A stretch of 36,385 bases of DNA from a virus (IMGVR_UViG_2698536369_000022), one strand, 5' to 3'; counted from the stretch's first letter, positions 4,161-31,136 are shown. A program made the numbers and translations. Notes: generated by a model from the sequence alone, not told the origin.

Positions 4161-4672
4161 TGGCTGTGCCAAAACATCTTCGCTTTTTTACGCTGTTTGT
4201 GGATGGTGAAAACGAAGTGGGTAAGGTGACGTCCGTCACTTTGCCTAAGCTGACGCGCAAAACCGACAGCTACCGGGGTGGTGGCATGATGGGGGCGGTA
4301 AGTATTGATCTCGGTCTGGACGACTCCGCGCTTGATGCGAGCTTTGTCATGGGGGGCGCAGTTCGTGAGCTGTTCCTTAAGTATGGCGGCACGATTGACG
4401 GCACGCTGCTGCGTTTTGCGGGTGAATACTACACCGATGCAGAAAGCGACCTGTATGAAGTCGAAATGCGCGGACGTGTGACGGAAATTGATATGGGGGA
4501 AGCCAAACAGGGCGAAGCCACAGCACACACTTACGCCATCAAAAACACCTACTACAAGCTGAGTGTTAACGATCGCCCGTTGTGGGAGATTGACCTGCTG
4601 AACTTCATTTACCGGAAGGACGGCAAGGACATTGTGCCTGACCGTATCCGTTCCGCGCTCGGGCTTGGCTGA
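4160..4672 (+). CDS. FII: Tail tube protein FII
   Basis: 170 aa directly after the sheath gene (start overlaps FI stop), typical sheath-tube pairing; sequence character consistent with P2 FII. Confidence 0.85.
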   Translation: MAVPKHLRFFTLFVDGENEVGKVTSVTLPKLTRKTDSYRGGGMMGAVSIDLGLDDSALDASFVMGGAVRELFLKYGGTIDGTLLRFAGEYYTDAESDLYEVEMRGRVTEIDMGEAKQGEATAHTYAIKNTYYKLSVNDRPLWEIDLLNFIYRKDGKDIVPDRIRSALGLG

Positions 4673-4727
4673 TAAGTAATATGCAGGCGGCGCAGTGCGT
4701 CGCCTCTGACTGAAAAGGAGAAAACTG

Positions 4728-5102
4728 ATGAAAGACATCGATACTGAAACCCGGAATAACACCGTGGCGGATGATGTGACGGCAGGTGAGGATATGGCTG
4801 TCGAACGTGGCGTAAAACTGACCCGACCAATTGAGCGTGGTGGCGAAAAAATCACGTATGTGGAGATCACCGGGGCTATTGAACAGGCTGGATCCCTGCG
4901 TGGTCTGTCGCTGTCTGATGTGCTGAATCTGAAAGCGGATACCATGTTCACGCTGTTGCCTCGCGTGACCTCGCCACGACTGGATGAAGTGATGATTAAA
5001 AAAATGTCGTCACGCGATTTTATTCAGTTGTGCGCTGTGGCTGTAAATTTTATGAGCGAGCCAGACTCTGGCGCGAAGAGCGTGCAGGAGACGGCAGCGT
5101 AA
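4728..5102 (+). CDS. E: Tail assembly chaperone E
   Basis: Small ORF between tube and tape measure genes with an overlapping -1 frame ORF, the conserved P2 E/E' arrangement. Confidence 0.75.
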   Translation: MKDIDTETRNNTVADDVTAGEDMAVERGVKLTRPIERGGEKITYVEITGAIEQAGSLRGLSLSDVLNLKADTMFTLLPRVTSPRLDEVMIKKMSSRDFIQLCAVAVNFMSEPDSGAKSVQETAA

Positions 5103-5266
5103 TCACCCTGGTGTGCTTTGAGCGCATCGAAGATCTGGTGGCAGATATCGCCGCCATTTTTAACTGGTCGCCCGCCGAAATCTTCATGATGACGCCCGGC
5201 GAAGTGGTTAGCTGGCGTGAGCGGGCGGCACTTCGCAGCGGGAATGCAGATAATGAAGACTCTTGA
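4728..5266 (+). CDS. E+E' fusion made by programmed -1 ribosomal frameshift (join about 4728..5003 with 5003..5266)
   Basis: ORF 5030..5266 is in the -1 frame relative to E and opens right after a TAA at 4997-4999; a run of seven A (4998-5004, codons AAA AAA of E) is the only obvious slippery site before the E stop; E' ends ..IFNWSPAEIFMMTPGEVVSW.. overlapping the start of T. Confidence 0.6.
4997..5004 (+). promoter_or_regulatory. Candidate -1 frameshift slippery site (T AAA AAA A)
   Basis: Poly-A heptamer in frame with E Lys91-Lys92, directly after the -1-frame stop codon. Confidence 0.45.
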
Positions 5267-8060
5267 CATCCGGGTCGCTTTCAGCGCCGTTGACAGGCTG
5301 ACCCGGCCTGCCGAAAACGCCCGCCGCCTGATGGGGCAGTTTGGTGACTCCATCCAGCGAACGCAGGGGGCGATCAAAAATCTCGAGCGTCAGGCGCGAT
5401 CATTTGAGCGCGCCCGCGACGCTGTCAGTAAAGCGGATGCTGGCATCGTGAAAGCACGACGCCAGCTTAACGCCCTTAATCAGTTACAACGCACGGGTAC
5501 AGTGCTCAGCGAAAAACAACAAAAGCTGATGCAGCAGTTAAGCACCCGGCTTGAACGCCTGAATGAATCGCGCACACGGGAAATTCAGAAAATGCGGGAA
5601 CTTGGCGGAGAGCTGAAACGCCACGGCATTTCCCTGACAGGCAGCGATAACACCATCCAGCAGGCCATCAGACGCACCGAACAGTACAACAACCAACTTG
5701 AACGCGAACGGCAGGCGCTTGCGCGTGTAACGCGGGCGCGTGAGCGGTATTCGCGCGCGCAGGAAACCGCGGGAAAACTGAAAACAGGTGGTGCGCTGGC
5801 AATTGGTGCTGCAGCGGCTGGCGGCTATGCTGCCGGGCGTTTTTTGCAGCCTGCGATCGGGTTCGGCAAAGAGATGTCCCGCGTTCAGGCACTGACGCGA
5901 ATCGACAAAAACAGCCCGCAGTTTAAGGCGCTGCGTGAGCAGGCGTTAAAACTTGGTTCTGAAACACAGTTTACTGCGAGTGATGCCGCCAGTGGGCAGA
6001 GCTTTCTGGCAATGGCTGGTTTTACTCCGCAGGCCATTCAGGCCGCATTGCCCGGTGTTCTTAATATGGCGCTGGCAGGTGGCGTCGAACTCGGCGAGAC
6101 GGCGGATATAGGCTCCAATATCCTCACACAGTTCAACCTGACAGCCGATCAAATGGACCGGGTTGGCGATACGCTGACAGCGGCATTCACCCGGACCAAT
6201 ACTGATTTACGCGCGCTGGGCGAAACCATGAAGTATACCGGTCCGGTTGCCGCAAAACTTGGTATCAGTCTTGAAGAAGCGGCAGCCATGGCCGGGATGC
6301 TTGCCAATAATGGTCTTCGTGGAAGCGATGCTGGTACGGCCATGCGCGCAAGTCTGTCCCGCCTTGCATCACCGCCAAAAGCTGCGGCTGATGCGCTGAA
6401 AGAGCTGGGGGTGTCAGTTGCTGACGCCAGAGGCAAAATGCGCCCGATGGAGGATGTGCTGCTTGATCTCTATAAGGCGACACAAAAATACGGACAGGTG
6501 GACCAGGTCTCCTTCTTCAAGGGCATCGCCGGAGAAGAGGCGTTCGTTGGTTTGCAGACGCTTGTTGCGGCGGCTGGTTCAGGAGAGCTGCAAAAACTGA
6601 CCAGAGAATTGCAGGGGGCAAGGGGAGAGGCCGATCGCGTTGCAAAAGTAATGGCCGATAATCTTGATGGGGACCTGAAAAGTCTCGACAGCGCATGGGA
6701 AGGTCTTCGTATTCGCATCAGTGATCTGGTTGACGGTCCGCTGCGTTCTGTCACGCAGTGGCTCACGCGGGTGCTTGAAAAAATCACCTCGCTGGCGCAG
6801 GCCCATCCGGTACTGACGCGCCAGCTACTGATAGCAGGCGGTGCGTTGCTGGCAATGACTGCAACGGTTGGCTCGTTGTCGCTGGCTATTGGTGTGCTTG
6901 CTGGCCCGCTGGCAAAACTGCGTCTTGGCTTTTCCCTCCTGACCGGTTCAATGAATGCTGTCAGACTCCTGCCAGCACTATGGGGAATGGTGACGGGTTC
7001 CGTTTCGTTACTGGGGGGCGCTATCGGGGCGTTGTTCAGTCCGGTCGGTCTTATCGTGGCTGCGCTTGCCGGAGCTGCCGTTCTCATCTGGAAATACTGG
7101 GATCCCATCAGGGCATTTTTTGCCGGGGTGTTCAGCGGGATTATGGAAAGGCTGACCCCGTTGCGCGAAACCTTTGAACGGTTTGGTCCTGTTTTTGACG
7201 CAATCGGAAGCGGGATCAGCCAGGTGTTTAACTGGTTTAAATCGCTGTTGTCACCGATGGAGTCCAGCAAGGAAACGCTGGATAAATGTACCAGTGCTGG
7301 CGAGATATTCGGTAACGTTCTTGGCGGTGCGTTACAACTTGTTCTGACACCTGCAAAAATGCTACTGGATACGCTGGCGTGGATACTTGAAAAACTTGGC
7401 GTCCTTCCGGATGAAGCGGAAAGGGCGCGCAAGAAAATCGAAGACGCACAGCGTGCGGCCATTCTTCAGGACAAGGTTGCTCTGTTTCAGGGAGACATTG
7501 CGAAAATCAATCCGCCGAAGCCTGTGGAAAATGGCAATGGCACCGGAGGTGATAAACCCAAAGACAACAAACCGCTCACAGACAGCAATACCGGGACGCT
7601 ACGCAGACTCAGCAAAATTGCTGATAACACAGGTAAGCTGGTTGATGAGACGAAAAAACGCATTGGCCCCGGCGATATTGTCTTTAAGAACCTGCCCCGC
7701 GCACTTGCTGTTCGTGGGGAGTGGCAGGAGCGGAAGATTGCACAGGTCAGTAAGCCTGCCCCCGCAATTAATATCACACCCGTGGTCCCGGCTCCGCTGC
7801 CTCCGGCGCTGATCCCTGTTGTTGCGGCCAGCTCCCGCCCGGTGGCGGAGGCCATACGATCTCAAGTGGCATCAGTTCCTGTAACTTCCCGTAACCGGGA
7901 GCCTGTTGCCTCCGGATTTGGTGGTGAAATTCATGTTCATCTGCATAACGTTGTTACGCAGAACCCCCGCGAACTGGCGAAACTGGTCGGTGAAATGGTC
8001 AGGGCAGAAATGGAACGGCGCGCCCGTGCCGGGCGTGGCAGTTTTTACGATAAAGATTGA
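5217..8060 (+). CDS. T: Tail tape measure protein T
   Basis: 947 aa, long coiled-coil-rich N-terminal half, Gly/Ala-rich hydrophobic segment, position after E/E'; start may be an internal Met (MKTLDIRVAF..). Confidence 0.85.
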   Translation: MSGRHFAAGMQIMKTLDIRVAFSAVDRLTRPAENARRLMGQFGDSIQRTQGAIKNLERQARSFERARDAVSKADAGIVKARRQLNALNQLQRTGTVLSEKQQKLMQQLSTRLERLNESRTREIQKMRELGGELKRHGISLTGSDNTIQQAIRRTEQYNNQLERERQALARVTRARERYSRAQETAGKLKTGGALAIGAAAAGGYAAGRFLQPAIGFGKEMSRVQALTRIDKNSPQFKALREQALKLGSETQFTASDAASGQSFLAMAGFTPQAIQAALPGVLNMALAGGVELGETADIGSNILTQFNLTADQMDRVGDTLTAAFTRTNTDLRALGETMKYTGPVAAKLGISLEEAAAMAGMLANNGLRGSDAGTAMRASLSRLASPPKAAADALKELGVSVADARGKMRPMEDVLLDLYKATQKYGQVDQVSFFKGIAGEEAFVGLQTLVAAAGSGELQKLTRELQGARGEADRVAKVMADNLDGDLKSLDSAWEGLRIRISDLVDGPLRSVTQWLTRVLEKITSLAQAHPVLTRQLLIAGGALLAMTATVGSLSLAIGVLAGPLAKLRLGFSLLTGSMNAVRLLPALWGMVTGSVSLLGGAIGALFSPVGLIVAALAGAAVLIWKYWDPIRAFFAGVFSGIMERLTPLRETFERFGPVFDAIGSGISQVFNWFKSLLSPMESSKETLDKCTSAGEIFGNVLGGALQLVLTPAKMLLDTLAWILEKLGVLPDEAERARKKIEDAQRAAILQDKVALFQGDIAKINPPKPVENGNGTGGDKPKDNKPLTDSNTGTLRRLSKIADNTGKLVDETKKRIGPGDIVFKNLPRALAVRGEWQERKIAQVSKPAPAINITPVVPAPLPPALIPVVAASSRPVAEAIRSQVASVPVTSRNREPVASGFGGEIHVHLHNVVTQNPRELAKLVGEMVRAEMERRARAGRGSFYDKD

Positions 8061-8066
8061 GGAGTC

Positions 8067-8561
8067 ATGGCCATGATGATGATCTACGGCATGTTTGTTT
8101 TTGAGCTGCGCACGTTGCCGCATCAGCAGTTACAGCAAAACAAAAGCTGGCGGCATGTGAAAAATGAACGCGTTAACCGTTCAGCAAGCTGGCAGTATAT
8201 CGGGGCAGGCGATGATCGCATCGTTCTTTCTGGTGTGCTTTATCCTGAAATTACAGGTGGCGAAGTGTCGCTTTCGTTGCTGACCACGCAGGCATATACA
8301 GGACGCCCCTGGCCTCTGATTGATGGTGTCGGGCAGATTTACGGCATGTATGTCCTGACCGGAACGAATACGACCCGCTCCGAGTTTGATCGCTACGGTA
8401 AGGCGAAAAAGATAGAATTTTCACTGACCCTTGAACGCTGTGATGAGGATTTGCGGGAGCGCCTGCAATCCTCATCGTTCAGTGATATGCTGCCCGGCTT
8501 CAAAGATAAGGTCACATCATCCCTTAACAGCGCGGCCAGCTCCGTTAAAGGGCTGTTTTGA
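8067..8561 (+). CDS. U: Tail protein U
   Basis: MAMMMIYGMFVFELRTLPHQQ...GRPWPLIDGVGQIYGMYV..SEFDRYGKAKKIEFSLTL matches P2 gpU (MMLALGMFVF...GRAWPLLDGTGMIYGMYV..SEFDRLGKPRTIDFTLTL). Confidence 0.85.
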   Translation: MAMMMIYGMFVFELRTLPHQQLQQNKSWRHVKNERVNRSASWQYIGAGDDRIVLSGVLYPEITGGEVSLSLLTTQAYTGRPWPLIDGVGQIYGMYVLTGTNTTRSEFDRYGKAKKIEFSLTLERCDEDLRERLQSSSFSDMLPGFKDKVTSSLNSAASSVKGLF

Positions 8562-8568
8562 TTAACGC

Positions 8569-8598
8569 AAAACCGCTAATGGTCAGATTAGCGGTTTT
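8569..8598. terminator. Hairpin shared by convergent U and invertase genes
   Basis: Perfect 12-bp stem AAAACCGCTAAT / ATTAGCGGTTTT with 6-nt loop, followed by CATTTTCC on the plus strand; overlaps the invertase stop codon. Confidence 0.55.
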
Positions 8599-9193
8599 CA
8601 TTTTCCTGAGTCTTCCTGGTTGTTTCTTCAGCCTGTATATCGCCTACAGGGTGATAACGATAAATCGTCGATATGCCGATGTCGTAAATGATCGCCAGTT
8701 GTTTCCTGTCATGACCGTTTTTAATCAGCCTCGCTATTTGCGCGTGTTGTTCTTTTGTCAACTTCGGGCGACGTCCGCCAATGCGTCCTTGTGCGCGTGC
8801 TGCTGCCAGCCCGGCCAGTGTACGCTCTACAATTAATTCACGTTCCATTTCGGCTAAAGCCCCCATGACGTGAAAAAAGAAACGCCCCATGGGTGTTGAT
8901 GTGTCAATGCTGTCCGTCAGACTACGGAAATTAACACCTTTTTCCCGCAATTCCTCAATAAGCGTGATCAGGTGTTTCATACTTCTGCCCGGTCTGTCCA
9001 GCTTCCAGACAACCAGCGTATCTCCTTCTGATAGCGTTCTGAGCAGTTTTTTCAATCCCGGTCTGGCTGATTTCGTTCCGCTGATTTTATCTTCAAAAAT
9101 TAGTTCACATCCTGCGCACTCCAGCGCGTTACGCTGCAATTCTGTATTCTGGTCATTTGTTGATACGCGGACATAGCCAATAAGCATGATCAT
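8588..9193 (-). CDS. Serine DNA invertase (Hin/Gin/Cin/Pin family)
   Basis: MIMLIGYVRVSTNDQNTELQRNAL...LVVWKLDRPGRS...GRFFFHVMGALAEMERELIVERTLAGLAAARAQGRIGGRRPKLT closely matches Hin (MATIGYIRVSTIDQNIDLQRNAL...GRFFFHVMSALAEMERELIVERT..); catalytic Ser in YVRVST; C-terminal HTH. Confidence 0.9.
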   Translation of the reverse strand: MIMLIGYVRVSTNDQNTELQRNALECAGCELIFEDKISGTKSARPGLKKLLRTLSEGDTLVVWKLDRPGRSMKHLITLIEELREKGVNFRSLTDSIDTSTPMGRFFFHVMGALAEMERELIVERTLAGLAAARAQGRIGGRRPKLTKEQHAQIARLIKNGHDRKQLAIIYDIGISTIYRYHPVGDIQAEETTRKTQENENR

Positions 9194-9214
9194 CCCCCTG
9201 AATAAAAACCGGAG

Positions 9215-9610
9215 ATGATGCCAGTTAGCCGTAATCTCTGCATTTTCTTAAACGTTGGTTTGGGAGAAGCGGCAAAACGAAATGTAGGAACAGGTTCAGG
9301 TCAGATACCGGATATGAGTTCTTTTTCTGGCAGCATTGCCAGCAAGGGATATCAGAAGTTACCGGGAGGATTGATTATCCAATGGGGGGCAGGAGATGCA
9401 GGTACGGGTTATGTAGGCTCGACAGGCAATGAGATGAATTTCCCAATCGCTTTTCCGTCACAATGTTTTCAGGTGGTGACGTCCTACGATAATGGTGGAG
9501 GAAAAATTGTTGCCGGGGCAGCAGGGAATATGACCAGGACAGGATTTCTTCTACGCTGTGATGCTTCTGGTGGCAATTATAATTTTCGCTGGTTTGCAAT
9601 AGGGTGCTGA
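9215..9610 (+). CDS. Promoterless alternative tail-fibre C-terminal cassette (Hv'), expressed only after inversion
   Basis: Shares the GLGE crossover peptide with gene H, then a 113-aa Gly-rich C-terminal domain; opposite orientation to H; the N-terminal 12 codons of the track ORF are probably not translated. Confidence 0.6.
   Translation: MMPVSRNLCIFLNVGLGEAAKRNVGTGSGQIPDMSSFSGSIASKGYQKLPGGLIIQWGAGDAGTGYVGSTGNEMNFPIAFPSQCFQVVTSYDNGGGKIVAGAAGNMTRTGFLLRCDASGGNYNFRWFAIGC
9243..9268. promoter_or_regulatory. hix/gix-like 26-bp inversion site (right)
   Basis: TTTTCTTAAACG-TT-GGTTTGGGAGAA inside codons NVGLGE of the alternative tail-fibre cassette; resembles hixL TTCTTGAAAACC-AA-GGTTTTTGATAA. Confidence 0.65.
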
Positions 9611-9611
9611 T

Positions 9612-10055
9612 ATGAGTAATTATTATTTTTCACGGACGACGTTAGCTTTTTATCCGGTAGATATGCTGGAGCTATATCGCTCATATGACAGCTTACCGGA
9701 TGATATTACGCCAGTATCTGATGAAATATTTTTGACTTATTCAGGAACACCACCTGAAGGGAAAGCGCGCGGTGCAAATGATGATGGACAACCTGAGTGG
9801 GTTGATATTCCACCAATGACTCCTGAAGAAGCAATACTCCTTGCCACAGCTCAAAAACAAAATCTTATTGATAATGCCAACGAATATATGAACAGTAAGC
9901 AATGGCCTGGCAAAGCAGCTATTGGTCGTCTGAAAGGTGACGAACTGGCGCAATATAATTTGTGGCTGGATTATCTGGACGCACTGGAACTGGTCGATAC
10001 TTCCAGTGCGCCAGATTTTGAATGGCCTACGCCTCCGGCAGTTCAGGCCAGATGA
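9612..10055 (+). CDS. Tail fibre assembly chaperone (alternative, Tfa')
   Basis: 147 aa; C-terminus ..LDYLDALELVDTSSAPDFEWPTPP parallels the C-terminus of the minus-strand Tfa (..LDYIDAVEATDTSTAPDVIWPELP); directly follows the alternative fibre cassette. Confidence 0.8.
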   Translation: MSNYYFSRTTLAFYPVDMLELYRSYDSLPDDITPVSDEIFLTYSGTPPEGKARGANDDGQPEWVDIPPMTPEEAILLATAQKQNLIDNANEYMNSKQWPGKAAIGRLKGDELAQYNLWLDYLDALELVDTSSAPDFEWPTPPAVQAR

Positions 10056-10629
10056 CATCAGGCGCGGTGCTGGTATCTGTTGCCTCCACCGCGTCAATGT
10101 AATCCAGCACAGCGTTTAGACGGGTTGTTTCTGCCTGCGTCAGTTTACGTCCGGCCTGCAATTTCAGTTGAATCAGACTGATGGAAGTCATTGCTGCATC
10201 AATCAGTGACTGGCGCTGTGCTTCTGCCGCGTCTACTGCGGCACCGTGTTGTGCCTCAGTATCTGCCACCCATTTTTCACCATCCCATTTATCGTATGGC
10301 GTTAACGGGGCGATAGTGGTTGTTTTTTCGGGGTAATCACCCGGAGTTGTGATTTCTTTGGCGTCTCCCGTTTCGGTGTTATAGACGATTTCACCGCGAT
10401 GGTCTGGCACATATTCCCATGAGTTTAAATCCATCGAACGGCAGATAGCATAACCCGCCTTATGTGTGCCAGGGGCATCTAAACAGGAATATGCAGGGAT
10501 ACCGACGCCAACAGCAAGATATTCATTTGAAGTGGAAATATATTCTCGAGTTTCACCATCATAGTTATAGACGGTAATATTCCCTGCTTTGGTGGCGATA
10601 ATCTCGCTATTTAATATGGCGTTATCCAT
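10027..10629 (-). CDS. G: Tail fibre assembly chaperone G
   Basis: 200 aa immediately downstream of H; conserved Tfa C-terminal motif; 3' ends of the two tfa genes overlap convergently. Confidence 0.85.
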   Translation of the reverse strand: MDNAILNSEIIATKAGNITVYNYDGETREYISTSNEYLAVGVGIPAYSCLDAPGTHKAGYAICRSMDLNSWEYVPDHRGEIVYNTETGDAKEITTPGDYPEKTTTIAPLTPYDKWDGEKWVADTEAQHGAAVDAAEAQRQSLIDAAMTSISLIQLKLQAGRKLTQAETTRLNAVLDYIDAVEATDTSTAPDVIWPELPEA

Positions 10630-12254
10630 TATGCAGCCCTCACAATATAGTTAAATGCAATATTCCTTGGTCGAACCCTAAAACCAGCCCCTGCGCCTGC
10701 TCCAGTTGGTAGCAATTCGATAGAGGGGTATGCTGTTGCAGTGGAATATAAACCTTCACGGGAATCATAATCAGTCGTCATATAGTTAGACGCATTATCA
10801 GAAACAGTTTCTGTCGGTCTGGTAACCAGACGATAAGAGCCAGTGGTTGTTGACCTGACCAGACCAAAACTTTCAACCAGAGTGGCTTTTTGAAAGCTTA
10901 ATAATCCACGACCACTGTCAGCTCCGCGCCCATCATCCCAGCCACGAATAAACTCACCACGTAAATCAGGCAATTTATTTGTCGGATAAGCCTTTGCCAG
11001 TTCCGGGTATTCTTCAGCAGAAAAAGCTGCACCGTTGCATTTCAGCCAGCCTGTCGGCGGAGTGGCTGAAGGCCATGGAACAGGTACACCAACAGGTAAT
11101 GCCGAACCTTCTCCCAAACCAAGGTAATCAAGAACTCCCTGAGTGCTGGTTTTACCAAGAATGGCACGTCCAACACTTGTCAACGCGGTTAACGCGGCAC
11201 GATCTGCCCCTGTAAAATATGGGAGTTTATCTGCTGATGTAGCAAGCTCTGCCAGCGCCGTCAGGGTGGCATCCTTCGGTTGCTTACCCGCAAGCGCGTT
11301 AGTCATGGTGGTCGCAAAATTCGGGTCATTGCCCAGCGCCGCAGCCAGTTCGTTCAGCGTGTTCAGTGCATCAGGTGACGAATCTACAAGTGCGGCAATC
11401 GCGGCCATAACGAAAGCCGTGCTTGCGATCTGGGTACTATTAGTCCCCTGTGGCGCTGTTGGTGTTGTTGGCGTTCCGGTCAGTGCCGGGCTGTTTAATG
11501 GTGCTTTCTTGTTCGTTTCATCCATTACCGCCTTAACAGATTTTGGTGTCGCTGCCAGCGTTTCAGACGTGCTGTTCGTGGCGCTACTGAGCTGAACAAT
11601 CCCTTTTTGTGTAGTGGTGGCGTTCTGGGCGGTATATTTCCCGTTAGCCAGGTCATATGCAGCCTTAACCGCTTTCGGTGTTGCGGCCAGTGTTTCTGAT
11701 TCACTGTTAATTGCACTGCTTAACTGAGTAAAACCTTTTACGGTCAGCGAGGCGTCCGGGTGACGACGTGACTGTTCGTGCTCTGAGATTTTATCATCCA
11801 CATATTTGCGGGTTGCCAGAACCACAGACGGGTCGATTTTCAGCGTGATGGCTTCGGTGTTCGTGACAACCAGAATCATGCGGATAGTCTGGGTGCGTCC
11901 ACTGCCTTCCTGCAACTGCGGTTTGTACGTTTCCGGGCAGTTTGCCACCGCAATGAGTACACCTTCATCATCATAAAGACCAATCTCACGGATCCAGAAT
12001 CCTCCCTCGTTTTCAGGGATGATTTGCTCCGCAATAATCTGGCTCTGATTGTTAGGGTCAACACTCAGAAGATTCAGCGGTGCAATGCGTTTCTGGTTAA
12101 TCAGTTTTGTTTGTGCAGGGTCTGGTGTTGGTAACACACCATTTGCATCACCAACGGCCATTTGCGTCAGATTCAGCTTACTGCCGAGCATCGTCGCGTT
12201 AGCCAGTCGTGCCGCGCCCTGATTAGTCAGAATGGCGTAGTATTTCACTGTCAT
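10629..12254 (-). CDS. H: Tail fibre protein H (constant N-terminal part plus currently expressed variable C-terminus)
   Basis: N-terminal ..TQMAVGDANG..FWIREIGLYDDEGVLIAVAN..YKPQL.EGSGR and the repeats HEQSRRHPDASLTVKGFTQLSSA / TQKGIVQLSSATNSTSETLAATPK match P2 gpH from memory. Confidence 0.9.
   Translation of the reverse strand: MTVKYYAILTNQGAARLANATMLGSKLNLTQMAVGDANGVLPTPDPAQTKLINQKRIAPLNLLSVDPNNQSQIIAEQIIPENEGGFWIREIGLYDDEGVLIAVANCPETYKPQLQEGSGRTQTIRMILVVTNTEAITLKIDPSVVLATRKYVDDKISEHEQSRRHPDASLTVKGFTQLSSAINSESETLAATPKAVKAAYDLANGKYTAQNATTTQKGIVQLSSATNSTSETLAATPKSVKAVMDETNKKAPLNSPALTGTPTTPTAPQGTNSTQIASTAFVMAAIAALVDSSPDALNTLNELAAALGNDPNFATTMTNALAGKQPKDATLTALAELATSADKLPYFTGADRAALTALTSVGRAILGKTSTQGVLDYLGLGEGSALPVGVPVPWPSATPPTGWLKCNGAAFSAEEYPELAKAYPTNKLPDLRGEFIRGWDDGRGADSGRGLLSFQKATLVESFGLVRSTTTGSYRLVTRPTETVSDNASNYMTTDYDSREGLYSTATAYPSIELLPTGAGAGAGFRVRPRNIAFNYIVRAA
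11109..11134. promoter_or_regulatory. hix/gix-like 26-bp inversion site (left), inside gene H
   Basis: Plus strand TTCTCCCAAACC-AA-GGTAATCAAGAA, encoding LGLGE of H on the minus strand; the TTCTCCCAAACC half-site is shared in inverted orientation with the site near 9250. Confidence 0.65.
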
Positions 12255-23535: not shown

Positions 23536-23551
23536 TGGGGCTGTCCTTTTT
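23524..23551. terminator. Bidirectional hairpin between convergent Q and the orphan gene
   Basis: Stem ACAGCCCC / GGGGCTGT with loop GTGAT, flanked by AAAA upstream and CCTTTTT downstream; overlaps both stop codons. Confidence 0.6.
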
Positions 23552-24074
23552 ACCAGAGTTGAACCATTTTCTGGGTGCCGTCAGGCTTGAGATTATCAAT
23601 TTCAGAGAGAACGTAATATTGAATGGCTTCACAAACGGTGGTGTATGGTGAATTACCTTCTTTAAGTGGCACGATATTATTATTAACGCGAACCTGTATT
23701 TCATCGTTATACATTGCGATCGAAAGAGGAGTATGCACGAACGCGACTTCGCCAGGTGTGTCGTCAACCACTGTCTCAATGCTGAAAATCAGTTTTCGCT
23801 CATCATTGCCGCCCCTTGCTTTGGGGGTAGCGGCAGGAATCTGAGATAAAGGCATTCTGCGAAACCCTTCAGTTGTTTCCAGTCCGCATGAAACGTAATG
23901 CTGGCGATTACCGTCGCTATCCGTCCATGTCTGTGATGGCAGCTCCAGAGAGATTTCATAAGCATCAACAATTCCCTGGGCAAGGTGTACAAGCGGGGTC
24001 AGATCTTCATTGCGGCGAAAACTTTCCTTTACCTGCTCTCGTTTTTCTCGTAACTGCTTGTAATTAATGACCAT
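23550..24074 (-). CDS. Orphan protein of about 174 aa (no recognised family)
   Basis: ORF with internal ATG (MVINYKQLREK..) preceded by GGAGG; protein-like composition; no motif I recognise. Track ORF 23550..24113 starts at GTG. Confidence 0.6.
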   Translation of the reverse strand: MVINYKQLREKREQVKESFRRNEDLTPLVHLAQGIVDAYEISLELPSQTWTDSDGNRQHYVSCGLETTEGFRRMPLSQIPAATPKARGGNDERKLIFSIETVVDDTPGEVAFVHTPLSIAMYNDEIQVRVNNNIVPLKEGNSPYTTVCEAIQYYVLSEIDNLKPDGTQKMVQLW

Positions 24075-24639
24075 AAAACAGCCTCCATTGATTTCTTTGC
24101 TCGTATTTTGCACTTATGAAGTGTGGTCGGCAAGGTGCCGCATCACTGACGCGCTTCGCTTGTCTGCTGCTTCGCCGGGGCATAAAAAATTTATGCCCCG
24201 ACTCTCCAGCTCCTGTATCAATCAGATAATTTCACGACGTCTTCCGACTTATCGCTATCATCGACAGTCAGGCTCTTACGCAATCCCGCCGCGCTGACTG
24301 CATGTTCTCGCCGCCTCAGTGCGATTTTGATGGCCTTACCTTTCATCCCATCAAATCAGAACCCCTTACGTCTTTTTCACGTTCAGCGTGAGCGATACAG
24401 CCATTCTGTTGTGTCGCTGCGACATCGTTCAGGGAATGCTATTTACCCCCTGAAACGCGGGCTGTTCCCCCGTCACCTGCGCGCAGAAAAAGCGCGTTTT
24501 TTTGTGCACGCACGGATCCTTGACGGATCCAGCCGCCACGCGGGCCGGAAGGGCAAAAATTCGTTCAAAAAAATTGTGCAAATTTGTGCACTATTGTGCA
24601 GCAGGGCGATGTGCGATTATCGCCCTGGTTTGAGGGGGA

Positions 24640-25179
24640 TCAGGTGTTATTTTTATCTGTCGTCAGTGGGCTAAACCATCCACAATTTACATCGCAGGAC
24701 TGATGCGTTCTGTCCTCGTGTTTCTCCTGCCACAATGCTTTTCCGCCAGCCTTTATGATGGCTCTTTCAACATCCCGCTCGTATCGCAAGGGCTGAAATA
24801 CGTCATTAATGAAATATTCGCTTATGTCCGGAAGCGATACTGCAAGATTATTTGTTTGTTGCGCCGTCCGGCTATGCAGCAAAGCGGCATACTTTAATGC
24901 GTCCTGTGCTTTCTGGAATTTAAGTGCATAGTCAGTGGCGATTTTTTCCAGTTCAGCGATGCGATTTTTTGCTGTTTCCAGTTCATCCAGCAGTGCCAGC
25001 ATGTCTTCCGGTCCAGCCAGAAGTCTGAAGGTGTTGATCGCGTCAATATCCACACCGTAATCTTTAAGTTCCTGTTCGCTTAACAAATCATCATCAACTG
25101 GCAATATTAACAGGCGTTCCATTGCCGGAATTGCACGTTCTGCTGCCATTTGTAGTGCCTGATAGTCAATTTTGCTCAC
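24640..25179 (-). CDS. Ead/Ea22-like family protein (paralogue 1)
   Basis: MSKIDYQALQMAAERA..MLALLDELETAKNRIAELEK shares N-terminal module with the adjacent gene. Confidence 0.55.
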   Translation of the reverse strand: MSKIDYQALQMAAERAIPAMERLLILPVDDDLLSEQELKDYGVDIDAINTFRLLAGPEDMLALLDELETAKNRIAELEKIATDYALKFQKAQDALKYAALLHSRTAQQTNNLAVSLPDISEYFINDVFQPLRYERDVERAIIKAGGKALWQEKHEDRTHQSCDVNCGWFSPLTTDKNNT

Positions 25180-25751
25180 TGACTGCCTCCTTTACGTAGC
25201 TCGGCGGCAAAAGCTACTGCGTGATCATGATGTTCAAGTGTGTATGCACACTCCGCAAACATCTCCACGCCCTGCGCCCGCACTTCAGCCAGGAAAGCAT
25301 CGGTGGCTGGAATGGGCTTTTGTGGTGATATAGCAATGCGAATTGTCTCAAGGTCTGGAGCTGTTTCCGCTGTTGGCACCTTGATATAACCCGTCTGCAC
25401 CCCATTCATGATGAACCTGCGACGGTCATCACATATCGCCTTAAGCCCTGCATTCTCCGCCGCCAGCGCCGCACGACTGGCCTCCAGTTCAGCAATGCGT
25501 TTGTTTTGGGCTTCCCGTTCATCCAGCAGCGCCTGCACTACTTCAGGGTTGAAAGCTGCGATATAACGAGCATTAGCAGCAGCTTTTTTCTGTCCATCAA
25601 ACCCAGGCCATTTGATAACATCTTCGCATCGTTTATCACCTGGCGTATGCACCGCATACGTACCAGTACCCGGCGAAATAAATGCGACCCATTCGCCCTG
25701 TGTTGCCTGTTTTGCTAACTCACGCAGTGCCTGATAGTTGATTTCGCTCAT
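25176..25751 (-). CDS. Ead/Ea22-like family protein (paralogue 2)
   Basis: MSEINYQALRELAKQATQGEW...NARYIAAFNPEVVQALLDEREAQNKRIAELE; family name from memory of prophage annotations. Confidence 0.55.
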   Translation of the reverse strand: MSEINYQALRELAKQATQGEWVAFISPGTGTYAVHTPGDKRCEDVIKWPGFDGQKKAAANARYIAAFNPEVVQALLDEREAQNKRIAELEASRAALAAENAGLKAICDDRRRFIMNGVQTGYIKVPTAETAPDLETIRIAISPQKPIPATDAFLAEVRAQGVEMFAECAYTLEHHDHAVAFAAELRKGGSQ

Positions 25752-25814
25752 TAAGTCGGTCTCCTTGTTTATGTTCTGAGGTGGAGATCAGGGCGAACTC
25801 GCCCTGACGTTGTG

Positions 25815-26126
25815 TTATTCAGGAAATAACGCCCTGATATTTCCGGCCATCTGACTGGTTATCTGTGCGGTTGGTACTGGCTGTGAGTCGGGGCGTTCTG
25901 TCCTGGTTTGTGTCACTGATAACGCCTCATCATCAGCCCATGCAGCCAGTCGGTAAGCCTCTGCCGGATTCATTTTCAGAAGTGCCAGCCCAGCCAGAAA
26001 AGCCACGCGTTGGCCGCTTTTGCGGGCTTCTGGTGTAAGGCTGTCCAGCCATGCGCATGCTTCGCCTTCGTTCTTGACGGCGGCGGGCTTCAGATAGAAA
26101 CTTATCCGTCTGGTTGGTGTCGTCAT
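25815..26126 (-). CDS. parR: ParR-like adaptor/repressor of a type II partition system
   Basis: From internal Met: MTTPTRRISFYLKPAAV..AWLDSLTPEARKSGQRVAFLAGLALL resembles R1 ParR N-terminus (..RRTIAFKLNPD..LDSIPQGERS..RAALTAGLAL); immediately downstream of the parM-like gene. Confidence 0.55.
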   Translation of the reverse strand: MTTPTRRISFYLKPAAVKNEGEACAWLDSLTPEARKSGQRVAFLAGLALLKMNPAEAYRLAAWADDEALSVTQTRTERPDSQPVPTAQITSQMAGNIRALFPE

Positions 26127-26130
26127 TGGT

Positions 26131-27090
26131 TTACTCCTTGTCCATTGCGTACAGCCCATTAACCAGAGCAAACTGTGGCACCCCGTCCGCGATGAAAGTC
26201 GCATTAACTCCGCAGGCTTCGCGGATAGCGGGTGCCACAATCTCCGCCCCTCCACCGACAACCATCACCCGCCCGTAACCCGAAAAAACCGCCAGCGCGC
26301 GGATCACGCGTTGTTTCAGTGTTTCTTCCTTTTCACGAATAACCGCCATCAGGCTGTTGTAATGCGCGTCATTGTGGATGTGCTGGCGCAGCCAGGCTTC
26401 ATCATGGCGATGTTCGATAATGGTATTGGCGATGTGGTGACTGGTACGCATACCGTTAGTGGCCATCACCGACAGTACGGCATCGGCCATCAGGGAAACG
26501 CCTACGTGTGGATCGCAAAACACCTGGCTGATACCTGCCAGTTGTCCCTGAACCTTTGCCACATCCAGCGTGGTTCCGCCTAAATCCACAATCAGCAGGG
26601 ATTCAAACGGACTCATGTCAGCCAGTGCCTTAAAGCCAGCCGGAATGGATTCAGGCATAACCCGTACGTTGCGGATAGTGAATGCCTCACTGTTCTGATA
26701 CTCCACCGGGCGCATAACGTTCGCTTTTTTGCGGTTGATGTTGGCCATGTCCGGCTGGGCGTTTGTGTCGAAATACTCGCTCAGTGGCAGGGTGACAACC
26801 ACATCCACCTCCTGTGGCGTGATGCCTGATTTGACCAGCGCATGATGAATGGCAATGACATTCACATCGCTGTACTGGTATTGCGTGTCGGTCGTCTGGA
26901 CAAAGCGATCGCTGACCGGATCAAAACCATAGCGCACGCCATCAAGCATGTAGTTCGCGGGCTGCATGCCACCGAACGGCGCAGACCATTCCGACTTGAA
27001 GCTGTTCGGGCTGATGGCGTTGCGGCGTTCGCCGTTCTCAGTCCATGCCAGCTTGATGTTGGTGGAGCCGTCGTCGATGTGAATTTTCAT
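26131..27090 (-). CDS. parM: ParM/StbA-family actin-like ATPase
   Basis: MKIHIDDGSTNIKLAW, ISPNSFK, YSDVNVIAIHHALVKSG, NRKKAN, VRVMPESIPAG, LLIVDLGGTTLDVAKV, VMVVGGGAE and ALVNGLY align with R1 ParM motifs as I recall them. Confidence 0.75.
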   Translation of the reverse strand: MKIHIDDGSTNIKLAWTENGERRNAISPNSFKSEWSAPFGGMQPANYMLDGVRYGFDPVSDRFVQTTDTQYQYSDVNVIAIHHALVKSGITPQEVDVVVTLPLSEYFDTNAQPDMANINRKKANVMRPVEYQNSEAFTIRNVRVMPESIPAGFKALADMSPFESLLIVDLGGTTLDVAKVQGQLAGISQVFCDPHVGVSLMADAVLSVMATNGMRTSHHIANTIIEHRHDEAWLRQHIHNDAHYNSLMAVIREKEETLKQRVIRALAVFSGYGRVMVVGGGAEIVAPAIREACGVNATFIADGVPQFALVNGLYAMDKE

Positions 27091-27121
27091 GTCGCTTTTC
27101 CTTATGTTGATTAATTAATCG

Positions 27122-27148
27122 TTTACGGGATTTTTAAATCCCGTTTTT
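27122..27148. repeat. Palindrome TTTACGGGATTT-TT-AAATCCCGTTTT upstream of parM
   Basis: 9-bp perfect inverted arms with 2-bp spacer in the 76-bp gap between the A stop and parM start. Confidence 0.6.
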
Positions 27149-27166
27149 GCCTGTTTTATGCGCGCT

Positions 27167-30007
27167 TCATATATCGCGGCGCGTTTTTTGCTCATTTACG
27201 GGATTTGTGAATCCCGTTTCTGTCTGTTTTTTGTTTCCACTGGTCAGGCCACCCCGCAGCAGGTCTGCTTTGCGGCGGGCGCGTTCAGTGGTTTCACTGA
27301 TTCTCTGTGCGTGCTCTGCGTCGCGGATGGCGCGCAGCATGTCAGAAAGCACGGTAACGGGTGTTTTCATGGTGTTCTGGTCTTGCTGAAGTGTGGATGC
27401 CAGGCGTGCGGCGGCTTCGGGGTCTGATGCCCCCAGCTGTTCCAGATAGCTGGCGATCGGGTTATGGCGGATCTCCGTGCTGCTTACGCCGTGGTTACGG
27501 CTCAGGCGCTGCCAGAGCTGCGTGATCCGTCTGTCCGGTCGGGTATCCGGTTTGCGTACAATTTCAAATTCCTGCGGTGCAATGATGCTGCCGTCAACGT
27601 ACAGGCTGCCGCCCCGTAACAGGTGCTGCATCTGCTGTTCACCGATATGCAGGCCGAGAGATTCGGCAGATTCCCGCCATTCTTTAGCGAGTAATTCGTG
27701 GTTATCAGGCAAAGGCCGCTGCTGTTTGCGGCTCTGTGTCCAGCTCTGCATTTCATCACTGCTGTTTTTTGCCTGTTTGTCACGAAGCGAACGCATCAGC
27801 GCCCGGCGTTCGTGCCGTTTCAGTGAGCGCATCCATTCGTTCACTTCAACGCCGTCAGGGAGCTGCGGCCACGGTGCTGGCCGTTCTTCCGGCTGTTCTG
27901 TCCCGTTGTTGTCCGTTTCCTGTACACGGGGACAGTTATTGCCACGAGTCCAAGGGGCGGCAGGGCCGCCCTGAAGGTCAAAACCATTTTCGCGGGCGCT
28001 GTCTTCCGCTTCCGGTTTGCGTCTTACCAGCTTCCAGTTATCCGGATGCGTGCATACGCGGGAAGACTCCCCAATGAGCGGCGACCAGATCCCGTAAATC
28101 TGTACGCTCTGTTCACCGTAATCGTTCAGCTCATCTGCGAGGTCGTAGGCGGTGCGAATCAGGTAGTCTTTGCGTGGAACAAGTACGCCACCCTGTTTCT
28201 CAATGTAGGTGGCAAAACATCCGGCATCAGCGGCAGCGAGTACCGCGTCCATTGCGTCATCCTTCAGCCGTTGCGGGCCTTCCGGGTTGCGTGCCATCTG
28301 GCTGGCAAGGCGGCGCAGTTCACGCCACACCTGACGGGAGGGGATACCAAAGAACTGGAACTGGCGGACCCGGTGAAGGCGCGCCCAGCCGATGGCGCGT
28401 TCCACGCTCTCGGCCATTGATTTTCCGGTTTCGTGGTCAACGCGTGGCTTGCCCGTTTTCGGGTCGATGCCATCTACGGCGCGGCTGTCCAGGTTTTTTC
28501 CGATGTAGGTCGCGATATAGCTGGTTGGTGTGCCTTTTGAGCCGTCGACATACTCCGCCTTAAAGCGCGGAGTAATATCATTGCCCAGCTCGTGGCGGTC
28601 TTCCTGAATGGCAATATCGCGGGTGATGACCACGATGCTGTCGATTTCTTCCGGATGAGCAAAGACCATCATATGCCAGTGCACGGTGCCGTCATGGTGA
28701 GGCTCCACCGTGCGGATGCCATACCAGCGAAGACCGTCGCGGCTCAGTTTTTTGCGGACCGCCGCAAAAAACGTGTTAACCAGGTAATCGCTGGAGTCGC
28801 GCATGGTGGCCCCGTTCCATTTGGGGTTCGGATGACCGTTCTCCGTTGTTGCGTGGTATTTTGACGGGCAGGTGACAGTCAGAAACACCGCTCTGTCGCC
28901 ACGGGCTTCGGCCAGAAGTTCCAGTCCTTTCATGGTGGCCATCATTTCTGCCTTACGGTGAACCGGGTTACTTACTCCCGCGTAATACACTGTCTCGAGA
29001 TCAATCGTGAACCCGTCTTCATTTTCCAGCATGAAACTTTTCAGGAAATCGCGTGTTTTCTCGCGCTGTGCGCGAAACTCGCTTAACGCGTCCTGGCTCA
29101 GATAGGGTGATGTTTTTCTGGAAACCAGACAGGCGGCGCGGCGTTGTTCTTCTCTCCACTCGCAACGTAACAGCCACAGTTTGCGTTTCCACCAGTCCGC
29201 ACAGGTCAGGCGAAGGATTGCGCCCGGCAGCAGTTCTGTGTCCGGTTCGTTCCTCCGGTCTTTGTCTGTTGTCAGTGCGTCATAATGTGGCGGCATGGCG
29301 TGCAGGTGTAACGCCATTCGGGCCAGCATCTGATACGCCTTCAGCGCCACTTCCATGGTCAGCTCACCATCGGTCGCGCCAAAGCCATCGCAGAGTGTCT
29401 CGAAGGTGCTGCTGAACATTGCCGCCGTCATGGTGGCCAGTGTCTGTATCTGGTGTTTGTTGAGCTGCGGCAGGTACAGCAAATCGTCCAGGCGTTCGCG
29501 CCCGGCAAGGGAGCGATAACCCGGTGTCAGCCAGCGTCCGTCAGTGCGATCCAGACGTTCGAATATTTTGCGCAGGGTTCCGCGTGCATAGCGTTCAGCC
29601 TGCCAGCTCTTTTTGCCTTTCTGGCGATCGGCTTCCTGTTTTTTGCGCAGGAAAGAGAGGTGGCAGCTCAGTGGTTCACGCAGATAAACAGGTAGTGCCT
29701 TTAGTGTGGCAAAGGCACGGGCTACTGGGTCTTGTTCTGTTGCCCGGCGCTTACTGATGATGCTCTGTGCCAGCTTTTCACGCTGTCCGGCTTCCTCAAG
29801 GGATGCCATGAGTTTTTTACCCATGGCGGATTGTGCGAAAAAGGCTTCTTCCTTCGCTTCCTGTTCTTCCTGTGCCCTTTTGTCTGCCTCAAGGTAGTAA
29901 CGGATGGCGCGTTGCAGGTCGGTTTCAGTTTCCTGCCTGTGCTCCGTAAATCTGGCCGGATCAATGGCTGGCCGTGGTTCATTCCAGCTCCATGCAAACT
30001 CATTCAT
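27167..30007 (-). CDS. A: Replication initiation protein A (rolling-circle endonuclease, GPA family)
   Basis: About 946 aa from the internal MNEFAWSW Met (ATGA overlap with the upstream ORF); contains HDGTVHWHMMVF HUH-like motif; position in the early operon as P2 A. Confidence 0.8.
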   Translation of the reverse strand: MNEFAWSWNEPRPAIDPARFTEHRQETETDLQRAIRYYLEADKRAQEEQEAKEEAFFAQSAMGKKLMASLEEAGQREKLAQSIISKRRATEQDPVARAFATLKALPVYLREPLSCHLSFLRKKQEADRQKGKKSWQAERYARGTLRKIFERLDRTDGRWLTPGYRSLAGRERLDDLLYLPQLNKHQIQTLATMTAAMFSSTFETLCDGFGATDGELTMEVALKAYQMLARMALHLHAMPPHYDALTTDKDRRNEPDTELLPGAILRLTCADWWKRKLWLLRCEWREEQRRAACLVSRKTSPYLSQDALSEFRAQREKTRDFLKSFMLENEDGFTIDLETVYYAGVSNPVHRKAEMMATMKGLELLAEARGDRAVFLTVTCPSKYHATTENGHPNPKWNGATMRDSSDYLVNTFFAAVRKKLSRDGLRWYGIRTVEPHHDGTVHWHMMVFAHPEEIDSIVVITRDIAIQEDRHELGNDITPRFKAEYVDGSKGTPTSYIATYIGKNLDSRAVDGIDPKTGKPRVDHETGKSMAESVERAIGWARLHRVRQFQFFGIPSRQVWRELRRLASQMARNPEGPQRLKDDAMDAVLAAADAGCFATYIEKQGGVLVPRKDYLIRTAYDLADELNDYGEQSVQIYGIWSPLIGESSRVCTHPDNWKLVRRKPEAEDSARENGFDLQGGPAAPWTRGNNCPRVQETDNNGTEQPEERPAPWPQLPDGVEVNEWMRSLKRHERRALMRSLRDKQAKNSSDEMQSWTQSRKQQRPLPDNHELLAKEWRESAESLGLHIGEQQMQHLLRGGSLYVDGSIIAPQEFEIVRKPDTRPDRRITQLWQRLSRNHGVSSTEIRHNPIASYLEQLGASDPEAAARLASTLQQDQNTMKTPVTVLSDMLRAIRDAEHAQRISETTERARRKADLLRGGLTSGNKKQTETGFTNPVNEQKTRRDI
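27195..27220. repeat. Second copy of the palindrome (ACGGGATT-TGTG-AATCCCGT) inside the 3' end of gene A
   Basis: Near-identical arms about 73 bp from the first copy; encodes TGFTNPV of the A protein C-terminus. Confidence 0.6.
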
Positions 30008-30393
30008 GGCTGGTATCCCGTCACGCGCTGCCACTCCTGCGAGAAGAGGGCAGAAAGGCGGTTAAATTCAGCGGTGTATTCACTCAGCGAGGCACACCCG
30101 CCAGCAGTGCGATGCGCCAGCATTGCCGCAAATACGGAGGCCGGGGAGTCGTAATACGCCAGCAGTGATTCTCCGTGTGGTGTCAGGCAGTGCAACGCCA
30201 GCCCGTGTGGTGTGAAGTCCACGCGGTAGCAGTCGTCTACTGTGAAATAAAGGGTGTCTGCATTCTCCGGTTTTGTGGTGCGTGCTCTGTTGTCACGACC
30301 ACGGATGTAGAGATCAAATAATCCCTGAAGAACGGGAGCCAGACGGGTGTCCTGTGTGCGCACCCATCTTGTGAAGTCATGAGCGTCAATCAT
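30004..30393 (-). CDS. Hypothetical protein (129 aa), coupled upstream of A
   Basis: Protein-like ORF whose stop overlaps the A start; no recognised motif. Confidence 0.55.
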   Translation of the reverse strand: MIDAHDFTRWVRTQDTRLAPVLQGLFDLYIRGRDNRARTTKPENADTLYFTVDDCYRVDFTPHGLALHCLTPHGESLLAYYDSPASVFAAMLAHRTAGGCASLSEYTAEFNRLSALFSQEWQRVTGYQP

Positions 30394-30693: not shown

Positions 30694-30865
30694 GGTGTGG
30701 CCTCTGCGGTAGTAAGTTGTAAAAACTCACCATCCAGAGGTGGAAAACTCGGGGTGGTGAGACGTACAGGGTTTCCACAACCGGCTACCACAGAACCCGG
30801 CCCGACCGAAGTCGGCCCCATACGCCCCACCATAATTCGTGTGCGAAAAAGACGTGGCGATACGG

Positions 30866-30893
30866 TACGCACAAAAAAACCGCTGGCGCGGTT
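30866..30893 (-). terminator. Rho-independent terminator for minus-strand transcription
   Basis: Minus-strand reading AACCGC-GCCA-GCGGTT followed by TTTTTTTG. Confidence 0.5.
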
Positions 30894-31136
30894 GTGCGCT
30901 GTGATAGTCAGCGGGGTGGAAATCCCGGCACCCGTTTTATGAGGTGCAGCGGAAATGTAACCTGACTGATTGCGGCATGGCAAGCGGTTTTTTTGTGTGT
31001 GCATATACAGTTTTACTCCGTTTAATCCGGTTTTTTTTGCCTTCAACCGGAAAAGAAGGGTGTGTTACGCTTGAAGCACCCGCTGTTCCGTCAAAAACAA
31101 GGCGGGTGCTTTGTTCAACACACGTAAGGAAAATAA

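Follow-up and report, generated by a model that had tools for sequence, protein, structure and literature searches.

Type II (ParMRC) partition systems stabilise plasmids by means of ATP-dependent filaments, which are dynamically unstable and drive paired replicons apart. The C-terminus of R1 ParR binds ParM. Phage-plasmids of the P1, N15, D6 and SSU5 type are extrachromosomal, possess a plasmid-type replication module and usually lack an integration module. In P2 biology, gpA-type rolling-circle replication yields monomeric circles. Partition-like genes have nevertheless been recorded in integrating phages. Rousset et al. (2022), who surveyed the gpA-gpQ region of E. coli P2-like prophages, reported that about a quarter of P2-like phages have a putative partition system, through which they might be maintained as plasmids (PMC9122126). 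P88, one of the relatives considered below, is a chromosomal prophage inducible by mitomycin C (PMC5285337). The AlpA/AlpC/alpS system of the Corynebacterium glutamicum prophage CGP3, induced soon after excision, is required if the excised circle is to replicate efficiently, and not for inheritance by daughter cells (PMC4446434). More than a thousand genomes in GenBank and RefSeq have the two genes annotated as ParM and as a partitioning/stability family protein, PHROGs includes dedicated families for both proteins, and the GenBank record of D6 itself remarks on the similarity to P88 StbA. The observation and its main interpretation are therefore already published, and the cassette described here is typical of a group that is abundant, annotated and already noted. 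The present analysis adds its linkage to gpA, a ParM clade that crosses genera, purifying selection, a count of chromosomal copies and a minimal two-dyad cis element.

The window, by which we mean the whole 36,385-nt stretch analysed (IMGVR_UViG_2698536369_000022), represents an integrating P2-like phage of E. coli with an intact plasmid-style ParM DNA-segregation cassette. An integrase, a C-type helix-turn-helix (HTH) repressor and Cox are all encoded in it, which bears out the initial annotation's description of an integrative P2-like phage with int and C. The order on the minus strand is gene A, a 76-bp gap, parM and parR, and the early operon lies on the same strand as these three genes. 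Gene A (27167..30034, minus strand) encodes a 955-aa rolling-circle replication endonuclease (Pfam Phage_GPA, 1.6e-129). Downstream of parMR lie two Ead/Ea22-like ORFs and one ORF of PHROG 5091, here called cargo, and the portal and terminase genes. The locus is 97.6% identical to that of phage P88 at the nucleotide level, and gpA, portal and terminase proteins are 93%, 98% and 98% identical, respectively. The window belongs to Xuanwuvirus, the P88-like Peduoviridae.

The parM gene (26131..27090, minus strand) encodes a 319-aa actin-fold ATPase of the R1 ParM/StbA family. Its product covers two Pfam domains full-length, both above the curated cut-off: StbA_N (residues 1-157, 1.2e-81) and the ParM C-terminal domain (residues 159-316, 6.8e-69). 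It also matches PHROG 691, "partition protein" (1.4e-89), and can be aligned over its entire length with the solved R1 ParM (PDB 1mwk, E 5.6e-92). The nucleotide-binding motifs are intact, namely phosphate-1 DDGSTNIK, phosphate-2 DLGGTTLD, GGGAE and MPESIPAG, and the substitutions private to the window, at residues 4, 42 and 134, fall outside the catalytic motifs. The proposal that this protein is a ParM thus holds in Pfam, PHROG, structure-linked and motif comparisons.

The parR gene (25815..26126, minus strand) encodes a 103-aa ParR/StbB adaptor. A mechanically called ORF spans 25815-26261; the actual start is the ATG at 26126, which is preceded by an AAGGAG ribosome-binding site and lies 4 nt past the parM stop. 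The product matches Pfam Plasmid_stab_B (PF10784) at 4.1e-24, with a score of 84.6 bits where the cut-off is 25. It also matches PHROG 2515, "partition protein", over its whole length (2.2e-58). The downstream gene had been likened to ParR at its N-terminus, and these matches identify it as such. With both the ParM/StbA and the ParR profiles matched, assignment of the 319-aa protein to another actin/Hsp70 subfamily falls away and the ParR partner is present.

Alignment of phage, IncI, R1-type and D6 ParRs reveals two shared segments. The first is R-R/K-x-S-F-Y-L-x-P at the N-terminus (RRISFYLKP in the window), which fits the expected ribbon of a ribbon-helix-helix fold; two helices are predicted after it in a single-sequence AlphaFold model whose pLDDT is only 49. 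A PDB sequence search with ParR returned chance antibody matches only and no solved ParR. The second shared segment is the C-terminal tail N-[IA]-x-x-[LF]-[FI]-[PN]; the R1-type StbB ends in ...KKNAMKLIN and the window ParR in ...AGNIRALFPE (tail N-I-x-x-L-F-P-E). Across 80 population samples, residues 1-14 and the tail hardly vary, and the linker between them (residues ~65-95) is hypervariable, with at least four very different allele classes. Many megablast matches, including those to O157:H7, span just the first 18 parR codons because these linker classes diverge. Judged from their sequences, the products of 26131-27090 and 25815-26126 are a true R1-family ParM and ParR, arranged in the plasmid order of cis sites, parM and parR.

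Pairwise dN/dS values, 0.02-0.2 in parM and 0.13-0.28 in parR, show purifying selection on the two genes. Among 81 parM sequences (54 nucleotide alleles) 106 polymorphic codons are synonymous-only and 35 change an amino acid. The 319-aa parM ORF is intact in 80/80 relatives and parR is full-length in 78/80. These values bear on the possibility that the cassette is a decaying relic of past plasmid-phage recombination, now without function. Such a relic would account for a cis region that is shrunken relative to R1 parC (two dyads against ten iterons) and for a carrier that integrates, but the selection and the intact ORFs effectively exclude it. The conserved catalytic motifs and ParR tail, and the retention of the cassette at a constant position across genera down to 58% identity, argue in the same direction, and we give a relic almost no credence. 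The O111 and O157 prophages in which A is truncated or the morphogenesis region is degraded still have intact parM and parR, an observation that fits a benefit to the lysogen as well as one to lytic growth, and in that respect tells against the replicative role that we favour below.

The cassette is closely tied to the replication gene. In 78/80 IMG/VR loci gpA lies directly upstream of parM. The distance from the last aligned gpA residue to the parM ATG could be measured in 74 loci and equals 79 nt in 66 of them, and gpA adjoins parM in every phage-clade locus examined that has enough upstream sequence. Among complete E. coli genomes the P88-type A gene is found in 1372 and parMR in 1307. The distance from parR to the portal gene ranges from 1.0 to 4.2 kb in the same 80 IMG/VR loci. 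Because the gpA-parM side is constant and the parR-portal side is variable, the variation hotspot of P2-like phages starts after parR or in its 3' part. One E. albertii prophage combines an A-parMR block of 93-99% identity with a portal and a terminase of only 30-35% identity, from which it follows that a replication-plus-partition block moves as a unit. The pair had been placed in a variable accessory island between A and the portal gene. Its position between these genes is as described, but parMR is a backbone module tied to one gpA type and not variable cargo. A GC-rich hairpin (TCAGGGCGA-gt-TCGCCCTGA, 25788..25807) just past the parR stop possibly marks the end of the parMR unit and the left edge of the variable cargo.

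Assignment of parMR to the anti-phage defence systems of the P2 gpA-gpQ hotspot was considered and rejected. A PADLOC search for defence systems gave no match, and parMR, unlike the cargo past parR, is constant beside gpA rather than variably present.

A partition pair was regarded in the initial annotation as unexpected on a P2-like phage, yet it is normal in Xuanwuvirus, and the locus occurs in 1307/5426 complete E. coli genomes (24%), with up to three copies per genome. It is 94-98% identical to 14 annotated phage records, among them P88, Xuanwuvirus P884B11 and Citrobacter phage phiSM. The conserved cassette is carried by about a quarter of complete E. coli genomes, O157:H7, O104:H4 and ST131 included, and by the Salmonella SopE phage. 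The order A-parM-parR-cargo-portal recurs in prophages of Hafnia, Plesiomonas and Serratia, whose ParMs are 58-62% identical to that of the window and in which int, cox and an HTH repressor are present where the contig extends far enough.

In species-representative genomes all ParMs at least 58% identical to the window protein adjoin gpA; none of those at 52% or below has gpA, portal or terminase within 6 kb. A neighbour-joining tree, calculated without bootstrap, places the gpA-linked ParMs as an exclusive clade among enterobacterial plasmid ParMs, and this clade spans Escherichia, Salmonella, Hafnia, Plesiomonas and Serratia. Since the gpA-linked ParMs nest in this way, the data fit a single old capture of a par cassette from a plasmid. 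The hybrid phage-plasmid ancestry suggested earlier is retained in this restricted form, as one cassette capture. The parM of a 44-kb Apirhabdus plasmid, 64% identical and frameshifted, was set aside: its carrier is a true Rep3/ParA plasmid and not a phage.

The upstream palindromes mentioned in the initial annotation are real. A 42-nt direct repeat precedes parM in two copies that are 86% identical and spaced by 73 bp. Each copy contains a 20-bp dyad of the form ACGGGATT-N4-AATCCCGT, at 27198-27217 and 27125-27144, for which the chance expectation is 0. The distal repeat unit (27192..27233, minus strand; dyad ACGGGATTCACAAATCCCGT) lies within the last codons of gene A. The proximal unit (27119..27160, minus strand; dyad ACGGGATTTAAAAATCCCGT) has its dyad 34-54 nt before the parM ATG and is a candidate ParR operator or half of a parC. 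The dyads stand at -127 and -54 from parM in ten relatives inspected by eye and in 78 IMG/VR relatives, and the 73-bp spacing is kept in 72 of those 78. The arms of the proximal dyad are retained at -54 in 76/78 population samples, the central bases varying most. At the distal dyad, the gpA tail tolerates changes of amino acid, but most of the DNA arm sequence is retained. In the P2-like prophages of Hafnia and Plesiomonas (ParM 62% identical) the best repeat pair is spaced by 73 and 72 bp and differs in sequence; the Serratia relatives have two other palindromes upstream of parM, 93 bp apart.

The dyad arms, AAATCCC/GGGATTT, form two inverted cores that resemble the core AAAACCC of the R1-type parC iterons. 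The R1-type locus used for comparison has an StbA 99.7% identical to the R1 ParM in the PDB, and its parC consists of 11-bp iterons. With four half-sites against about ten iterons in R1, the cis region looks like a strongly reduced parC, and the two dyads may serve as a centromere or as an operator only. Two dyads, where R1 has ten iterons, may be too few for a ParR complex that captures filaments, and this weighs against a DNA-moving function of the cassette.

A consensus sigma-70 scan upstream of parM found no strong promoter match, and manually picked -10/-35 elements in this region were unconvincing and were dropped. A phasing of A-tracts by 11 bp over the cis region, considered by eye, is likewise not claimed. 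On the gene strand no terminator-like site was found between A and parM. Since neither a promoter match nor such a site is seen, parMR is likely transcribed by read-through from the early operon.

How the carrier lives determines what such a cassette could move. Of the copies of the locus in complete E. coli genomes, 1453/1455 are chromosomal. The window has int, cox and a C-type repressor, unlike a phage-plasmid, and gpA is the sole replication gene identified; the carrier is an integrative P2-like phage rather than an autonomous low-copy replicon. Because the carrier integrates and its copies are chromosomal, a claim that the pair is a plasmid partition locus is weakened, whereas a claim that it works like one is not. 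Seven PLSDB records contain the locus; the inspected ones are those described next, and the other three are large replicons of 227 kb to 1.4 Mb. Three of the inspected records were rejected as phage-plasmids. In pBone4_5 (542 kb) chromosomal dmsABC surrounds an integrated prophage, in a Salmonella IncHI2 record (272 kb) pheA-tyrA-aroF-ffh surrounds an integrated sopE-carrying phage, and a Shigella record of 26.7 kb is a linear, IS-ridden fragment. The only phage-sized circle found is NZ_CP148288.1, deposited as a circular "plasmid" of 34,461 bp, which contains int and represents a complete P88-like genome. It could be a stable episome or excised replicating DNA.

An episomal lifestyle as the regular state, one of the options raised at first, is disfavoured because all but two of the E. 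coli copies are chromosomal and the inspected large "plasmids" hold an integrated prophage; an occasional or transient episomal state is possible. The check suggested in the initial annotation, whether the element is found extrachromosomally, yields one phage-sized circle against about 1450 chromosomal copies. A related proposal is that the phage is a facultative plasmid prophage, which in certain hosts or under certain conditions, such as a missing or occupied attachment site, persists as an episome of low copy number. Rousset et al. (2022) propose such a reading (PMC9122126), which would explain why a complete ParMRC-type cassette is under selection and why a complete P88-like genome was deposited as a circle, and a related StbA/StbB pair does serve the plasmid prophage D6. 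We nevertheless regard it as unlikely: int and cox are kept in all members examined, no plasmid-type replication gene is seen beside the rolling-circle gpA in its repressor-controlled early operon, the copies are chromosomal with two exceptions, the two large PLSDB records inspected are chromosome segments, and spontaneous induction could have produced the lone circle. If the phage were a conditional episome, the boundary between integrative phages and phage-plasmids would be blurred and P88-like phages would be conditional phage-plasmids. The circular record does imply an episomal state at least sometimes, which sits awkwardly with a cassette that acts in the replicative phase.

Among the lifestyle readings we favour co-option, in which the cassette would act while the phage replicates. 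More specifically, we hold with middling confidence that a working ParMRC cassette moves excised or infecting phage circles in the replicative phase and does not serve stable maintenance of a plasmid prophage. ParR dimers would bind the dyads at -127 and -54, each with two inverted iteron-like AAATCCC cores, the proximal one in an operator position just upstream of parM, as in R1. The C-terminal tail of ParR would capture growing ParM-ATP filaments, and ParR-bound DNA molecules would be pushed apart. The two genes are probably co-transcribed at the distal end of the early unit, from Cox to A, a timing read from gene order alone. From this early-unit position, the monomeric circles that gpA makes and the nearly constant integration of the element, the cargo of the filaments would be the excised or infecting circular phage genome in a replicative or transitional phase. 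The cassette might then disperse or position replicating circles, or deliver copies to the two daughter cells ahead of integration. That parMR is tightly linked to gpA, and not to the variable hotspot, likewise points to a replication-related role. No functional study was found in the literature on ParM/ParR of P88, Xuanwuvirus and CP-933T, and EHEC transcriptome and proteome papers with their supplements gave no usable ParM/ParR expression data.

The cassette might instead act in the lysogen, with ParR as a regulator, with sister prophage loci pushed apart, or by interference, through incompatibility or exclusion, with incoming related phages or ParMRC plasmids. As such a role predicts, the cassette stays intact where the prophage has a truncated A or its morphogenesis region is degraded, up to three copies may share a genome, and the several divergent alleles of the ParR linker are as expected if cross-talk between co-resident elements matters. 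The locus also borders the known P2 defence hotspot (PMC9122126). Yet it is linked tightly to gpA rather than to that hotspot, it matches no PADLOC defence model, and the scan revealed no strong promoter of its own. Its ParR shares just 27% identity with R1 ParR and its sites are unlike R1 iterons, which makes cross-binding to plasmid parC unlikely. On this evidence a role in the lysogen seems quite improbable. We are similarly doubtful that an actin spindle of plasmid origin, acting through a minimal centromere of two dyads, regularly serves an integrating phage, whether to bridge a transient episomal stage or to act on the integrated locus. Action on the integrated locus, if true, would mean that chromosome or prophage segregation is influenced in a quarter of E. 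coli strains.

The cassette can be set beside four described systems. Those of P88, Xuanwuvirus and phiSM are the same system, with 94-98% nucleotide identity, the A-parM-parR order and the dyad sites in common; the differences are allelic only and comprise the three ParM residues private to the window and the cargo after parR. The ParMRC loci (parA/stb) of R1/R100 and IncI plasmids share with the window the protein families, the gene order, cis sites upstream, the adjacency of the parM stop and parR start, the ParR tail and a site core of an A-tract followed by CCC, and the context of the ribosome-binding site is similar. They differ in sequence, ParM being 46% identical to that of R1 and 52% to that of an IncI plasmid, and ParR 27% identical to that of R1. 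The window ParR has 103 aa against 116-140 aa. R1 parC has about ten direct 11-bp iterons flanking the promoter, whereas the window has two dyads 73 bp apart, one of them inside gene A, and the R1 and IncI carriers are autonomous low-copy plasmids, whereas the carrier here is an integrating phage.

D6, a P1-like phage-plasmid, is another tailed phage with members of the ParM and ParR families, StbA and StbB. Its ParM is 47.5% identical to that of the window and is not part of the gpA-linked clade. Unlike the window, D6 is a true plasmid prophage, and a long multi-repeat region lies upstream of its stbA. AlpAC of CGP3 resembles the phage cassette in other respects: the genes for an actin-like filament protein and for an adaptor that binds DNA are located on an integrated prophage, and the adaptor sites lie upstream of the operon. 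AlpC, however, is a distant Alp and not an R1-family ParM, and the adaptor gene comes first. CGP3 AlpA/AlpC/alpS would still be the best functional analogy to phage parMR. If parMR does position replicating circles, AlpAC would have an R1-family counterpart among Gram-negative bacteria, and one that is a genetically tractable model of cytoskeleton-assisted phage replication.

Among the records found, NZ_CP148288.1 is the only phage-sized extrachromosomal one. It was deposited as a circular 'plasmid' of 34,461 bp from E. coli strain Z1323PEC0009, and the whole record amounts to one complete genome of a P88-like phage, in which int, cox, a repressor gene, A and parMR are all present. Two large records that are also labelled plasmid, Salmonella pS2122_1 and E. 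coli pBone4_5, carry a P88-like prophage integrated in stretches of core chromosome. The core-chromosome genes are pheA-tyrA-aroF-rplS-ffh in pS2122_1, which also has sopE, and dmsABC in pBone4_5. These records represent either chromosome capture or assembly/labelling artefacts. The nearest plasmid-borne relative that was seen is on a 44-kb Rep3/ParA/UmuDC plasmid of Apirhabdus apintestini (positions 5992-7269), and consists of a frameshifted parM, with 64% identity to the phage ParM, and a 102-aa ParR.

The A-parM block of the Escherichia albertii NBRC 107761 prophage (3270-7276) is 93-99% identical to the window, while the portal and terminase of the same prophage (8383-11128) share just 30-35% identity with it. 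Judged from these sequence identities, the replication/partition module has evidently been swapped between different P2-like morphogenesis backbones. The parM and parR ORFs are still intact in clearly defective prophages of O157:H7 F6321 and O111:NM 14614; in one of this pair gene A is cut short by IS3, and in the other parR is adjoined by IS3 and tail genes.

Comparison of parR (25815-26126) with its IMG/VR relatives (L063-L142) reveals a mosaic. About 18 codons at the start and about 8 at the end are nearly invariant, whereas at least four allele classes can be told apart in the middle (about 52% identity between the window type and the O157 type). This pattern suggests that the recombination hotspot has its left edge inside parR. 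The variable cargo 3' of parR occupies 23550-25751 in the window. It consists of a tandem pair of Ead/Ea22-like ORFs (25176-25751, then 24640-25179), a gap of about 525 nt without an ORF (24114-24640), and a PHROG 5091 ORF (23550-24113). None of the cargo ORFs in 23550-25751 matched any PADLOC defence model.

Two gathering-level Rfam matches, both on the minus strand, lie in the early region of the window, 5' of gene A: a C4 antisense RNA (30750-30837, 78.8 bits) and the Hfq-binding sRNA isrK (30873-30947, 64.7 bits). Both overlap a mechanically called ORF that has an Ash-family Pfam match. In P1 and P7, C4 is part of the immI region, which controls the antirepressor. By analogy, the C4 match would suggest that this P2-like phage has a switch of a similar kind.
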